Assembly (NCBI GenBank): GCA_018221205.1
Contig: JAAOYF010000012.1
Location: 1 to 34,744 of the forward strand
Direction: 5' to 3'
From: Candidatus Woesearchaeota archaeon
GTDB lineage: Archaea > Nanobdellota > Nanobdellia > Woesearchaeales > WJIZ01
Length of the DNA stretch: 34,744 bases
Part shown: positions 15,307 to 25,836 of the stretch, one piece after another
How the letters are laid out: each line of letters opens with the position of its first letter
Position numbering within the stretch: position 1 is the first letter of the stretch
Made by a program: the position numbers and the translations under genes
The notes under the pieces: model-generated
The model's database searches: none
The model's input: the letters and a program-made list of their open reading frames with translations, nothing else
Told to the model about the DNA's origin: nothing

Positions 15307-16863
15307 TTAGCCGCATCTGATGGCGCGTTCATAAGGCCTTCCGCCTTCTTTCCGGCCTTTGCGATAGTTTTCTACGGCTATCTTGATGAGTTTCTTTCCT
15401 GTAGGGGTAGGATATTGCCTATTGATGCAAGCCGTACAGAGATCTCTTTTCGGAAGGCCAATCGCCTTTATGAGTCCTGGAATGGACTGATAGATCACCG
15501 TGTCTGCCCTAAGATATCTTGCCATCTTTTTTGCAGCTTTCTCCGGCATACTTTCTGCAGGCTCTTTCATGAATCTTGGGGCGAACAGCTCTGTCACGGT
15601 CGACATATCAATGCCATAGAAGCACGGACCGATGATAGGCGGACAGCTCACCCTGACGTGGACTTCTGCTGCACCTGCATCTTTCAAGGCCCCGACAATC
15701 TGCTCTGTGGTTGCTCCTCGGACTATGCTGTCATCTACCAAGAATATCTTCTTTCCTCTGATGACTTCCTTCACTAAGGTATATTTATTTGCGATCTTGT
15801 CCTTTCTTGATGTGCCCTCTATAAAAGTCCTGCCGACATATCTGTTTCTGATCAGGCCTTCTTTCACTGGAACTCCTAATTCATAGGCGAATGCGTCTCC
15901 GGCTGCTTTTGCGCTATCGGGGACGGGAATGACGATATGGTCTTTTGTTACCTGCTGGGTCTCCAATCTTGCGAGCTCTTTTCCTAATCTGACCCTTGTC
16001 ACGTAGACTGATCTGCCGTCCAAAACAGATGAGACATTCGCGAAATAGACCCATTCGAACATGCAATGCGCTTTTCTTGTAGAGGGGGCATATCTTTTTA
16101 TCGAGATATTGCCATTGTCGATCTGGATCATCTTTCCAGGCTCAAGATTCTTGAATCTCTCAAAGCCGCAGTTCTGGAGAGCATTGGATTCTGACGCTAC
16201 CAAGACATTTCCATCTTTTATGGCGTAGCTCAATGGCCTGAATCCTAAAGGATCCCTCACTGCAGCGATATCTCCCAAAGCATTGATGAAGGTGATATTG
16301 TAGCTTCCTTCAAATTTTTTTGAAAGATTGTTAAAGACTGCCCGTAGATTTGGCTTTTTGTTTCCGACCAAAGCTCTTGCCAGATAGTGCATGAGCATCT
16401 CTGTATCGTTCTCTAAGGTAAAATGATATTCTTTCTTCTTCTCTAATGCCTCCCTCAATGGATAATAATTGACTAAGTTGCCATTGAAACCAAAGGAGAA
16501 CCATTTCCATAGACGGCCATGATGCCTCTCAAACGGCTGGGCAAACATCCTTTCGCTCCTTCCGAATGTTGCATATCTCACATGTCCGATGCCTTTATTT
16601 CCTGAGAATTTCTTGAAGATATCCAGGCTTTTTTCGAGCTTGCTCGTCCGAAAGACCTCATTCACTGTCCCGATATCCCGGTGAGTGTGAAGAATCTGCC
16701 TTCTTTCCTGGTTATAGGTCGTGATGCCTGCGCTCAATTGGCCGCGATTCTGCAAGTTCAGAAGAATCTTATAGAGATAGAACAAGGCCTTATTTGAAGA
16801 ATCCTTATTCGGCTTGAGGTAGACTGCCGCTACCCCACACTCGTCGTGGACTTCGCCTGACAT
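15307..16863 (-). CDS. purF: amidophosphoribosyltransferase
   Basis: Short propeptide then CG, LQNRGQ, GHVRYAT, CMFEWVYFA, VDDSIVRGAT, PCFYGIDM, CTAC. Confidence 0.95.
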   Translation of the reverse strand: MSGEVHDECGVAAVYLKPNKDSSNKALFYLYKILLNLQNRGQLSAGITTYNQERRQILHTHRDIGTVNEVFRTSKLEKSLDIFKKFSGNKGIGHVRYATFGRSERMFAQPFERHHGRLWKWFSFGFNGNLVNYYPLREALEKKKEYHFTLENDTEMLMHYLARALVGNKKPNLRAVFNNLSKKFEGSYNITFINALGDIAAVRDPLGFRPLSYAIKDGNVLVASESNALQNCGFERFKNLEPGKMIQIDNGNISIKRYAPSTRKAHCMFEWVYFANVSSVLDGRSVYVTRVRLGKELARLETQQVTKDHIVIPVPDSAKAAGDAFAYELGVPVKEGLIRNRYVGRTFIEGTSRKDKIANKYTLVKEVIRGKKIFLVDDSIVRGATTEQIVGALKDAGAAEVHVRVSCPPIIGPCFYGIDMSTVTELFAPRFMKEPAESMPEKAAKKMARYLRADTVIYQSIPGLIKAIGLPKRDLCTACINRQYPTPTGKKLIKIAVENYRKGRKEGGRPYERAIRCG

Positions 16864-16979
16864 CTGATAAAATTTAATGGAGATTGGTTTTTAAATCTTT
16901 GCTTTGAAATGATTTATAGAAACTTGAGAATTATAAACTCCCTGGATTTCTTATATAATCATCATCCTAATAGTTTAAA

Positions 16980-17558
16980 TTGAGTAAACGATTCTTCTTT
17001 GGAATGGATCCTTATACCTTACCTAGAAATTCCTTAGATCGTGCCCGTGTATTGGCAAGTGAACTCAAACCTGGAAATGCCATACTTGTGCATCAGGGTG
17101 ATAATTTTACTGGAAGGAATGATCTTCTTATTTTCCAAGGATATGATATCCCTTCTGAGGTTTCTACTAGGGGTAAAGAACTTACGATTTATGGCTCTCC
17201 TCATTTTGTTCTGGAATTTGATGACCAAGGAAGGACCAACCCCCGAAAGGGAAGAGACTATATTAACATCAAAGATGATAGATTGGCCTATGTTGTGACG
17301 GGCAGTGTAATACCTCATGCAGTAAGGAGGATCGGAGAAACGAGAGAAGGTCCTATCGCTGGCCCTGGCCAATATGAAGAAATGCTTGAGGATGTGGCAT
17401 CATTTCAGGGAAGAGGTAGAATTCCGCGAGAATTCGTCGATGCTGTTGTCCGTTTCCATACTGGTATTGCGACGATGAAAACAACTATGATTGGCCATAC
17501 GCTTTCTCAATACCCCTTACCAAGGAAAACCTTAATAAATCTGTTCGAAATGGCTTAG
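16980..17558 (+). CDS. hypothetical protein (orphan-like)
   Basis: 192-aa ORF filling the intergenic space; T-ending-codon bias unlike its neighbours; start (TTG 16980 or ATG 17004) uncertain. Confidence 0.55.
   Translation: MSKRFFFGMDPYTLPRNSLDRARVLASELKPGNAILVHQGDNFTGRNDLLIFQGYDIPSEVSTRGKELTIYGSPHFVLEFDDQGRTNPRKGRDYINIKDDRLAYVVTGSVIPHAVRRIGETREGPIAGPGQYEEMLEDVASFQGRGRIPREFVDAVVRFHTGIATMKTTMIGHTLSQYPLPRKTLINLFEMA
17523..17540 (+). promoter_or_regulatory. BRE/TATA promoter of the outer tRNA-Ser
   Basis: Purine-rich AGGAAAA followed by TTAATAAA (17532-17539), about 25 nt upstream of 17564. Confidence 0.6.
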
Positions 17559-17585
17559 GATATGCTGACGTCGCATAACCTGGTA

Positions 17586-17642
17586 TGCTCAAAAACGCTT
17601 CGATGTGTTTTTGGCACGCCAAAAAGCTTTGCTTTTTCGGCG
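17586..17642 (+). repeat. twin-hairpin insertion 1 (D-loop, position 21/22 or 22/23), 57 nt
   Basis: TGC-T-CAAAAAC...GTTTTTG-GCA then CGCC-AAAAAGC-TTT-GCTTTTT-C-GGCG. Confidence 0.85.
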
Positions 17643-17678
17643 TTGCGGTGGCCTTGAGAGCCACTTTCCGCAAGGATA

Positions 17679-17832
17679 CTGATGAGAATTTCCCTTGATG
17701 CCGTCGTGGCACAATCTGGTACTGCGGTGGCCTTGAGAGCCACTTTCCGCAAGGATATCTCGGTTCAAATCCGAGCGACGGCGTAATGAGGGAAATTCTC
17801 ATTGCACAATAAGACCTATGGTCTTATTTGTA
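17679..17832 (+). repeat. twin-hairpin insertion 2 (154 nt) carrying a full tRNA in its first loop
   Basis: TGATGAGAATTTCCCT (17680-17695) pairs with AGGGAAATTCTCATTG (17789-17804) around the inner tRNA; second hairpin AATAAGACC-TAT-GGTCTTATT. Boundaries ambiguous by 2 nt. Confidence 0.85.
17700..17783 (+). tRNA. inner, uninterrupted tRNA-Ser(UGA)
   Basis: GCCGTCG/CGACGGC acceptor plus G, GCA/TGC D-stem, GTGGC-CTTGAGA-GCCAC, long variable arm, CTCGG-TTCAAAT-CCGAG; 84 nt, no encoded CCA. Confidence 0.95.
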
Positions 17833-17842
17833 TCCCGGTTCA

Positions 17843-17893
17843 TCCTCAAAAATCGTAGATTTTTGGGAACTCGGGGAGCTTTGCTCTCAGAGT
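17843..17893 (+). repeat. twin-hairpin insertion 3 (T-loop, TTCA^AAT), 51 nt
   Basis: TCC-T-CAAAAATC-GTA-GATTTTTG-GGA then ACTC-G-GGGAGC-TTT-GCTCTC-A-GAGT. Confidence 0.85.
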
Positions 17894-17909
17894 AATCTGG
17901 GCGTCAGCG

Positions 17910-17915
17910 TTTTTT
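17910..17915 (+). terminator. oligo-T terminator of the outer tRNA
   Basis: TTTTTT directly after the discriminator base. Confidence 0.6.
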
Positions 17916-17919
17916 AGAA

Positions 17920-19314
17920 TTATGCAGCAACTTTCTGCTCAGCAAGATAGGTATTGGCTATTGATTTGAGTGTGTTATGTGAATATCGTGCCATCAAATG
18001 ATTAACATGCTTTTTATCAAACCGAAGGTTATCCAACGTCGCAAACTTCTCATTTCTGGGTCGGTATGCCTTGAGGAGATCGGGTTCAGCTCGACTTAAA
18101 GCGACTACTTGCTCGTTTGTTAGATTCAGTTTCTTGCTGACTTTATCAATTTGATATGTTGCTCGATTATAGGTTTTATCTCCGGCATGGAGTGTATACT
18201 GTTCCAGTTTCTTATAGGATCCATCATCAGTGAGGGTGAAAAGTGCTCTGTTCGTTGGAATGTTCACTCCGTTTTCTCTCAATTCACTCTTAATCTTAAC
18301 CGTGTCAAGTTCCTCGATATCTTCGGAATCATCGAATTTTAAAACTCTGTATCTCTTGTCTCCACTCACTTTAAAATCTACTTCATTTATTTTTTTCGCA
18401 ACATCAGCAACATTGAGATACGCCCTGTCATTAGCTGTCCTGGTTTTTCTAATAGTGCCTTCAGCGAGACATTCTTCGAGTGAAATTCCAATCTCAGCAA
18501 GTTTTTTATCAGCAAGATGATAGCTCACTTCACCATCTATTGGTTGTCGAATTAAGCGGTCCCTTACTCTTGAGCCATAAAAAGTTTGGCCGGCGACATG
18601 CACTGACGCATGTTCTTCTTTGTCAAGAACTTGCTCTAGCTTGTCTTCTGGAATTTTTGTATATCGGGAAAGTTCTTTTTTTGATAGAATTCCACTTTGC
18701 TTACGGAGATCATTCATTTCTTCCTTGTCAAAATATATTTTGCCATGCACCTTTCTTTTCTTAAGTCTTCCACTTTTCATTCCCAGTGCTCTTAACGTTT
18801 GCACTGTTTCTTCTAGTGGGACTTCCCAGGATAATTGCCCTTTTAGTTTACTAATATCTTGATCTGAGAATTTAAATGCGCTACCGTCACGATAGCCGAT
18901 TTCGTCTCCGCTTGATATTGCTCGCTTGATTTCTTCTACTGACCGTTTTGACAATCGAGATGCTTTTTCCAATGTATGGCAGTATGTATATTCTGGGTCC
19001 CATGGCAGAGTCCCCTGAAGTGTCGAGATATCTTCTTCAGGAAATCGAAGATTTTCTCCTTCCCTGAATGGTTCGAGAATCCCTTCACCAACAGCTCGCT
19101 TTACTTCATCACCCGATCTGCCAGATCGTTGTGCAATTTCTTCAAGTAAAAGGCTTGCTTTTGGTTTTGTAGGTAAAGTCATGTCCTTGTTCTGCATCCA
19201 AGGTACGGAGAATTCATCCTTTTCGTGCCATTTCCTGCTTACGTATTCTGCTGCTTTCCCTATGGATCCAGTAACCTTCCCCGCATATCCCAGCGCCTTC
19301 TTGAACATACCCAT
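17920..19314 (-). CDS. protein with multiple excisionase/MerR-like (HTH_17-like) winged-helix repeats
   Basis: Two clear tandem repeats (LEEIAQRSGRSGDEVKRAVGEG.LEPFREGENLRFPEEDI and LEKASRLSKRSVEEIKRAISSG.EIGYRDGSAFKFSDQDI) plus weaker copies. TATA-like box near 19337-19344 suggests ATG 19314. Confidence 0.65.
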   Translation of the reverse strand: MGMFKKALGYAGKVTGSIGKAAEYVSRKWHEKDEFSVPWMQNKDMTLPTKPKASLLLEEIAQRSGRSGDEVKRAVGEGILEPFREGENLRFPEEDISTLQGTLPWDPEYTYCHTLEKASRLSKRSVEEIKRAISSGDEIGYRDGSAFKFSDQDISKLKGQLSWEVPLEETVQTLRALGMKSGRLKKRKVHGKIYFDKEEMNDLRKQSGILSKKELSRYTKIPEDKLEQVLDKEEHASVHVAGQTFYGSRVRDRLIRQPIDGEVSYHLADKKLAEIGISLEECLAEGTIRKTRTANDRAYLNVADVAKKINEVDFKVSGDKRYRVLKFDDSEDIEELDTVKIKSELRENGVNIPTNRALFTLTDDGSYKKLEQYTLHAGDKTYNRATYQIDKVSKKLNLTNEQVVALSRAEPDLLKAYRPRNEKFATLDNLRFDKKHVNHLMARYSHNTLKSIANTYLAEQKVAA

Positions 19315-19363
19315 ATCATGCACAATTGGCCAGCCTTTTAAAAAGTTTTCGTCTGCTACTACT

Positions 19364-25715: not shown

Positions 25716-25836
25716 AGCCCCATAGTGTAGTGGTCAAATGGGATCGGAGATCCCAGTTACTCAGAAATCTCCGATTTCAGAGCAATCATCTTTGGTTCTG
25801 GGCCAAAGGACCTCGGTTCAAATCCGGGTGGGGCTA
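25716..25836 (+). tRNA. tRNA-Gln(CUG) with a 48-nt D-loop insertion/intron (about 25738-25785)
   Basis: AGCCCCA/TGGGGCT acceptor plus A; after removing 48 nt the D-arm reads GTGTAGTGGTCAATCAT; TTTGG-TT-CTG-GG-CCAAA; CTCGG-TTCAAAT-CCGGG; 73 nt joined. TTAAATA box at 25684-25690. Confidence 0.92.
25738..25785 (+). repeat. twin-hairpin insertion in tRNA-Gln (position 21/22)
   Basis: TGGGATC-GGA-GATCCCA then CTC-A-GAAATC-TCC-GATTTC-A-GAG; CAA repeated at both junctions. Confidence 0.85.

Follow-up and report, generated by a model that had tools for sequence, protein, structure and literature searches.

The 34,744-nt window, meaning the whole stretch of DNA that was analysed, belongs to a 1.28-Mb genome assembly (G000, contig C44; 94.8% complete) and carries a complete tRNA-Ser(UGA) gene inside an insert of a second, interrupted tRNA-Ser(UGA) gene. 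The outer gene, here termed the shell, is divided by three inserts into four exon pieces, and the locus comprises the following features, given with the two neighbouring open reading frames (ORFs).

17564-17909, + strand: outer (shell) gene as a whole, four exon pieces and three inserts
17530..17539, + strand: TATA-like element, ~25-34 nt 5′ of the outer gene
17564..17585, + strand: shell exon 1, acceptor 5′ strand and D-arm through A21
17586..17642, + strand: insert 1, 57 nt, in the D-loop at 21/22; two neighbouring hairpins, with a bulge-helix-bulge (BHB) helix that is drawable but sequestered
17643..17678, + strand: shell exon 2, D-stem 3′ strand, UGA anticodon arm and variable arm
17679..17832, + strand: insert 2, 154 nt, at 47/48 (variable-arm/T-stem junction); TA-bounded two-hairpin cassette
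17680..17695, + strand: left inverted arm of cassette hairpin 1, pairing with 17789-17804
17700..17783, + strand: inner tRNA-Ser(UGA), complete and intron-less (ARAGORN; Rfam RF00005, 54 bits)
17789..17804, + strand: right inverted arm of cassette hairpin 1, pairing with 17680-17695
17808..17828, + strand: cassette hairpin 2, 9-bp stem
17833..17842, + strand: shell exon 3, U48, T-stem 5′ strand and T-loop through A57
17843..17893, + strand: insert 3, 51 nt, in the T-loop at 57/58; two neighbouring hairpins, borders fixed
17894..17909, + strand: shell exon 4, T-loop end, T-stem 3′ strand, acceptor 3′ strand and G73
17910..17915, + strand: T6 run, 3′ of shell exon 4
16980-17558, + strand: ORF, no family found
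17920-19323, − strand: ORF, 467 aa, HTH-like units in repeats, convergent with the tRNA locus

The sequence-only reading of this locus had placed inserts at 21/22, at the variable-arm/T-stem junction and in the T-loop, with none at 37/38, and re-deriving the coordinates gave the same sites, the joined exons forming an 84-nt molecule that ARAGORN called as tRNA-Ser(UGA). Every acceptor, D, anticodon, variable and T pair forms in the joined shell, with a single G-U pair in the T stem, in line with the intact exon stems described there. The borders of insert 1 lie at 17586-17642 or are shifted by one base, and those of insert 2 can slide 2 nt to the left because the TA is repeated. All three inserts consist of two adjacent hairpins each. 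The four shell exons share 20/22, 27/36, 10/10 and 13/16 bases with the Ser(GGA) gene of G000, and the outer gene is therefore not a chance resemblance.

The inner gene, to which the earlier reading had merely alluded, is complete and sits in the loop of hairpin 1 of insert 2, whose arms form 16 pairs (14 Watson-Crick and 2 G-U), and a 6-bp helix (17674-17679 with 17830-17835) closes over the insert. It is the sole uninterrupted Ser(UGA) gene found in G000 and is likely the working gene; in the folded precursor, the pair probability of its acceptor stem was 1.0 for six of the seven pairs. Applied to the intact locus, ARAGORN and Rfam detected the inner Ser(UGA) gene alone and missed the outer one. 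The two genes have a 35-bp anticodon and variable-arm stretch in common (35/36 bases of shell exon 2 are identical to the inner gene) and differ at 11/84 positions, none of them in the anticodon and variable arms and most of them compensatory pairs.

The TATA-like element likely serves as the sole promoter of the nested locus. Archaeal transcription ends at oligo-U, and the T6 run is likely the terminator of a 346-nt precursor. The protein encoded at 17920-19323 gave a sub-threshold HTH_17 match, with all Atlas matches below 0.8. The adjacent ORFs were considered as part of the feature and rejected, the downstream neighbours of the nests in G006 and G008 being different by eye.

Splicing motifs of the inserts and the tRNA endonuclease

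Intron borders in the tRNA genes of G000 were placed by hand, and BHB motifs were then scored by script. The other tRNA genes contained 38 introns, 14 of them non-canonical, and 13 of these 14 formed four of four central BHB pairs, the exception being an insert at 21/22 of tRNA-Gln(CUG) with three. In this gene (window 25716-25836), the D-loop insert is 48 nt long, forms two hairpins and has a 3/4 central helix that lacks an outer one, and the Gln(CUG) isoacceptor may be dispensable by wobble. At 37/38 (n=24), four central pairs were present in 10 introns, three in 11 and two in 3, and the G000 enzyme is thus not strict at this position, where 14/24 introns have two or three central pairs. Hand reading also identified a two-intron tRNA-Ile gene with a UAU anticodon (G000 C63:38515-38654, − strand).

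Removal of the shell inserts would restore a full cloverleaf, as expected of BHB introns, and a 4-bp central helix between two 3-nt bulges was not found for the inserts overall. The CTGG/TCGG helix proposed earlier for insert 1 can indeed be drawn with four pairs (two Watson-Crick and two G-U), but it has no outer helix and one inner pair, and forcing the BHB placed the fold 14.0 kcal/mol above the minimum-energy fold, compared with 0.3-8.1 kcal/mol for the 13 genuine non-canonical introns, leaving insert 1 without a flanking helix and an accessible motif. The central helix of insert 2 reached at best 3/4 pairs (1-2 Watson-Crick) in the three registers tried and that of insert 3 at best 1/4, bearing out the weak or absent BHB previously judged by eye for these two inserts. 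Insert 3 has no BHB spanning the whole insert, and the search for motifs in the folded precursor and its intermediates, which the sequence-only reading had recommended, led here to a BHB-like site (7.1 kcal/mol) that would free just the first 31 nt. In a search for two-step removal of each insert, the best route for insert 3 needed a 2/4 helix; none of the one- or two-step routes with good motifs removed insert 3, its last 20 nt had no removal route, and ordered removal did not create later motifs within this two-step search. An unrestricted BHB scan of the precursor returned many chance motifs, and BHB drawability alone is therefore weak evidence.

G000 encodes EndA and RtcB, together with RNase P RNA, Pop5 and RNase Z, and the RNase Z and EndA genes adjoin in divergent orientation (L001:248-1788, G000 C31). 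EndA is a single gene of 184 aa with no paralogue, and it aligns gap-free to the M. jannaschii alpha4 enzyme in the region between the catalytic Tyr and His, where the N. equitans protein has 6 extra residues. The Atlas clusters closest to this EndA come mostly from Woesearchaeota/Nanobdellota, and on the strength of this one protein G000 is provisionally treated as a Woesearchaeote. In the accessible text of PMC5829648, relaxed-motif cleavage is tied to specific EndA loops, and we infer that the N. equitans insertion equates with L3 of that paper. By sequence, the G000 EndA looks like a plain alpha4 type, with neither an (alpha-beta)2 or epsilon2 architecture nor an L1, L2 or L3 loop, which disagrees with the earlier appeal to a broad-specificity EndA as in Thermoproteales and ARMAN. 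The shell inserts are probably not spliced.

Nests, cassettes and shell decay in relatives

A DNA search of 60 relatives revealed the same nesting, and junction patterns were searched in 401 genomes of the order (two patterns), in GTDB and in metagenome contigs. In the 401 genomes, pattern 1 gave 14 matches (eight nests, one true BHB intron in G376 and five not tRNA), pattern 2 gave 23 (14 cassette ends, six intact genes that naturally end in this way and three not tRNA), and a D-loop junction search gave three (the G029 shell and two not tRNA). The GTDB-wide scan returned 12 matches (one nest, L103; two tRNAs without a cassette; nine not tRNA) and the metagenome-contig scan 21 (seven nests, one leftover 3′ piece and 13 unrelated). 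The merged set, including one added from a later check, held 25 cassette junctions, and an intact Ser gene lay inside or directly upstream in all 23 with readable context, the remaining two, both in G073, being cut by the contig end. Nests occurred in at least 11 of the 401 genomes, spread over 8 families, and the patterns used make this count a minimum; G371, unpublished and the same locus as the public L114, was left out of this count, and the unpublished G212, G248, G371 and G375 enter through class counts alone.

The anticodon was the same inside and outside in all 18 of the 20 shells in which it could be read, the shells of G398 C2 and G008 C10 being too broken. In G014, the inner gene lies in the 57/58 insert and not in the variable-arm cassette, and at L090 (G008:C55:5500-6700) three Ser(UGA) genes form a three-deep nest. 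A second G008 locus, L195 (G008:C10), has two 3′ shells downstream of a Ser(GGA) gene. The L103 record is titled uncultured Methanosarcinales archaeon, and its nest is almost identical to that of G247, a member of the window's order, a likeness for which mis-binning, mislabelling or transfer come into question. Tandem 3′ tRNA-Ser fragments with hairpins were seen at L014 (G048), L016 (G053), L160 (G073) and L197 (G213), where they follow intact genes or lie at the end of a contig, and the G213 fragment bears another two-hairpin 57/58 insert.

All 20 parsed variable-arm cassettes follow a TA, end in GTA and show a 6/6 helix closing across the insert; 17/20 start with CA, and GTAC lies between the hairpins in 18 of the 19 with the centre located. 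Their lengths range from 54 to 418 nt (17/20 under 200 nt), and the TA is doubled in comparison with the empty site. The cassettes keep their ends and hairpin shape and vary in arm sequence, with at least one compensatory arm change by eye (L114 vs L117), a pattern that could reflect an RNA-level role. Hairpin 2 of the window's cassette is almost identical in G003, which belongs to another genus. The window's cassette has lost two family motifs, with CT in place of CA at the start and GCAC in place of GTAC at the centre, and is therefore not brand new.

A canonical BHB occurred in 1/20 variable-arm cassettes versus 1.8 expected after host reassignment (permutation), which, with the missing one- or two-step route for insert 3, speaks against the relaxed-motif or sequential EndA splicing put forward by the sequence-only reading; the summed central pairs of the 20 cassettes were marginally above expectation (64 vs a permutation mean of 60.9, p=0.05). 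True BHB motifs at the same variable-arm position, with no inner tRNA, were found in stand-alone genes of G376 and G077 C8, the latter (L194) being a four-insert Ser(UGA) gene interrupted at 29/30, 37/38, the variable arm and 59/60, with BHB-type helices of 3-4 pairs. The insert-3 (57/58) family had a tRNA context in 3 of the 45 matches read (of 47), in G000, G014 and G113, in every case within a leftover 3′ piece or a Ser(UGA) shell that is redundant, and G014 and G113 have the first hairpin of insert 3 at the identical site.

Damage was scored in a model alignment of 19 loci as stem-breaking pairs or loss of G73, and it affected 9/20 outer genes versus 0/19 innermost genes (Fisher p=0.0012; close kin, G247/L103 and L114/L117, are not independent in this test), the initial count of 10/20 having been lowered when G077 was removed by eye as an alignment slip. 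Stem-breaking decay confined to the outer genes, a sign that the sequence-only reading had named as favouring a pseudogene, lends support to that option in the form of a disabled shell; removal of the inserts by another route, also raised there, may still apply. Two additional shells, in G029 and G338 C4, lack the 3′ half. The inner genes of G247 and L103 have the same alignment score and are identical by eye, and the acceptor and T stem are broken in the L103 shell and not in that of G247. In the other 11/20 shells, including that of the window, every stem is intact, which requires selection, or an insertion that is recent or has been renewed. In 15/19 loci a TATA-like element lies ahead of the outermost shell, compared with 0/19 for the inner gene, which would therefore be excised from a long precursor.

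In the anticodon/variable segment, shell and inner genes differ by 2.55 bases, compared with 7.19 between genomes, and in the acceptor/D segment by 4.05, compared with 4.04 between genomes; these segment differences would fit separate origins plus local homogenisation. A shell closer than the inner gene to the host's other Ser genes was found in G000 and weakly in G014 among the 9 genomes tested; G006, G055 and, to a slight degree, G003 showed the reverse and 4/9 were tied, leaving a resident shell with a foreign inner gene unsupported beyond G000.

Interpretation of the nest and its relation to known systems

The nested anatomy, the absence of BHB motifs, the repeated occurrence among relatives and a decay that affects outer genes only are direct observations, and we consider it probable that the locus is a disabled shell with an internal replacement gene, in which the shell inserts stay unspliced, the inner copy supplies the tRNA and the insertion rescues itself. 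A single precursor would start at the shell promoter, its first 136 nt would serve as a leader, and cleavage by RNase P and RNase Z would free the inner tRNA. An unlikely alternative is that the outer gene is a working three-intron tRNA, from which relaxed or ordered EndA cleavage, or a three-way-junction nuclease, yields two Ser(UGA) tRNAs per transcript. Such a gene would account for intact exons with compensatory differences from the inner gene and for the 11/20 intact shells, and the drawable 4/4 helix of insert 1, the BHB-like site in the first hairpin of insert 3 and the cassette ends conserved across families point the same way, as do the ordinary BHB introns in some shells (G008, L121, G077) and, in the accessible part of an Asgard census (10.64898/2026.10.13.758758), a sizeable minority of intervening sequences without a canonical motif. 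It is opposed by the last 20 nt of insert 3, for which there is no route, by canonical BHB motifs at chance level in the 20 cassettes, by an EndA without the N. equitans insertion, and by an intact twin that is always present in the 23 readable cases and remains undamaged as the outer genes decay; the BHB introns in some shells are expected if they are older than the cassette.

How a disabled shell with its replacement gene would arise is a question on which our confidence is evenly divided for one proposal, built from sequence comparisons: cassette entry at a TA, persistence through the cargo and spread via Ser tRNA recombination. The cassette would have entered at the TA in the palindromic variable-arm/T-stem junction, would persist only by carrying a replacement for the gene it breaks, and would likely spread or be renewed via recombination between Ser tRNA genes, which would explain why the two genes have the anticodon arm in common and how a nest became three deep; intact-looking shells would likewise be renewed if homologous recombination acted on the cognate gene. 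Two distinct alleles would have been joined by the cassette and then homogenised locally, and inserts 1 and 3 would represent additional hairpin modules, which a redundant shell can tolerate. A doubtful extension holds that the cassette is a gene-less, homing-like element of Woesearchaeota that enters tRNA-Ser at a fixed TA, brings its own replacement and can re-enter that copy to give three-deep nests, its boldest form adding BHB-independent three-way-junction excision that gives two tRNAs per transcript.

No Y1 transposase (PF01797), DDE_3/IS630-type transposase (PF13358), tyrosine integrase (PF00589) or reverse transcriptase (RVT_1) was found in G000 (94.8% complete), and no full-length copy of any insert module was found elsewhere in this genome. 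A loosely defined hairpin core of insert 3 was present at 5 G000 sites versus 0-1 in mononucleotide shuffles. The cassettes were found only via searches anchored on Ser tRNA genes, and dispersed-copy searches in other genomes were likewise anchored on tRNA sequence. Viral and phage origins were tried and rejected: pattern scans of IMG/VR returned 8 and 18 matches, all outside tRNAs, and blastn against phage records gave no match, so that neither the viral contigs nor the phage records contained a cassette match in a tRNA context.

In G000, hairpins and an 11-15-nt duplicate of the gene's own 5′ end precede four other tRNA genes, and a TATA-like element lies before the duplicated 5′ fragment in 4/4.

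C12:16541: Val-GAC, preceded by a 5′ copy
C39:209: Ser-GGA, preceded by a 5′ copy
C52:17459: Ser-GCT, preceded by a 5′ copy
C64:24231: Arg-TCG, preceded by a 5′ copy

The Ser-GCT gene of G000 has a 3′ fragment downstream as well. These four genes, each with the TATA-like element first, are what an origin in place would lead one to expect, in which hairpin insertions with long target duplications (of the 5′ part and the 3′ part) were followed by allele replacement of one copy, from which the differences between shell and inner gene would stem, and no tRNA-carrying cassette moved; the leftover 3′ pieces after intact genes in G113, G213, G394 and G073 and the identical anticodon/variable segment in 8/20 nests are in keeping with it. 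We nonetheless regard this origin as quite unlikely: the arms flanking the inner gene are complementary and therefore act together as a single unit, many families have the cassette at the same site and with the same ends, the shell acceptor halves pair mutually and not with the inner gene, and the shell acceptor differs from the inner one as much as genes differ between genomes. That two Ser(UGA) alleles were mis-joined during assembly via the 35-bp repeat is very improbable. Two public runs, both of contigs and probably of DNA, were examined; the one with this stretch gave contigs covering 16800-17629 and 17887-18302, none spanning the nest, and the single joint match belonged to a different tRNA-like contig, but the two contigs with this stretch show 0 differences and extend into inserts 1 and 3, the same architecture appears in independent assemblies with unrelated arm sequences, and the arms are complementary across the inner gene.

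The following comparisons draw on the accessible portions of the cited papers. Multi-intron BHB tRNA genes of Thermoproteales, ARMAN-2 and Asgard archaea (PMC4390854, PMC5829648, PMC3239211, 10.64898/2026.10.13.758758) resemble the shell in their several hairpin inserts at non-canonical positions, in exons that rejoin, for the shell on paper, to a complete tRNA, and in an encoded EndA and RtcB. Unlike these genes as described there, two of the three shell inserts have no usable BHB, one insert holds a whole tRNA with the same anticodon, the insert types are unseen in stand-alone genes, and the outer genes decay. TA-ended MITEs of bacteria and archaea such as ERIC, Correia and RUP, as far as they are covered in PMC2229807, are likewise under 200 bp, gene-less and fold-back, with a TA on either side when compared with the empty site, an end structure that in the shell is present in insert 2 only; unlike them, the cassette consists of two hairpins with a common central GTAC and carries a tRNA as cargo, with no full-length dispersed copies and no IS630 or Y1 transposase found in G000. 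No cognate transposase of either family (PF01797 and PF13358 were sought) accompanies the cassette in G000.

Integrative elements that target tRNA genes regenerate their target gene, and Nanoarchaeum equitans makes tRNAs from split genes by trans-splicing. As with such elements and viruses (SSV; portion of PMC4090602), insertion at the nest breaks a tRNA gene and leaves a working gene plus a fragment, whereas the cassette holds the whole replacement gene, both old halves stay and the insert is only 154 bp long; G000 has no PF00589 match, the insert is gene-less, and the integrase with att duplication typical of these elements is lacking. A box C/D guide RNA in the intron of archaeal tRNA-Trp(CCA) is also a functional RNA inside a tRNA-gene insert, though in that case, as the same portion of PMC4090602 describes it, the host is spliced and essential, whereas the cargo of the nest is a same-anticodon tRNA and its host is probably dead. 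The freed shell halves would share a 16-bp complementary stem, reminiscent of split tRNAs (accessible parts of PMC3978253 and 10.64898/2026.05.13.725050). Split tRNAs differ in these sources by separate transcription units and a BHB-like joint: the nest is one contiguous locus with one promoter, the TATA-like element lying before the shell only, there is no BHB at the joint, and the intact copy makes joining unnecessary. The nest thus belongs with neither BHB nor relaxed-motif introns, nor with integrase elements or split tRNAs, and what it shares with TA-ended MITEs is limited to their end structure. The literature searched yielded no description of one tRNA gene lying inside another of the same anticodon; Sugahara 2007, Fujishima 2010 and bioRxiv supplements could list cases.

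How intervening DNA arrives in archaeal tRNA genes is called open in the accessible part of the 2026 Asgard census (10.64898/2026.10.13.758758). The nests would be snapshots of insertions that are probably unspliceable and survive only by bringing a spare gene, and, set beside true BHB introns at the same position elsewhere, they would offer a before-and-after system for intron arrival. For annotation they carry a warning: motif-free censuses would score the shells as multi-intron genes, and ARAGORN and Rfam catch the inner copy only. The nests would also provide a system for tRNA gene replacement by recombination in DPANN archaea.
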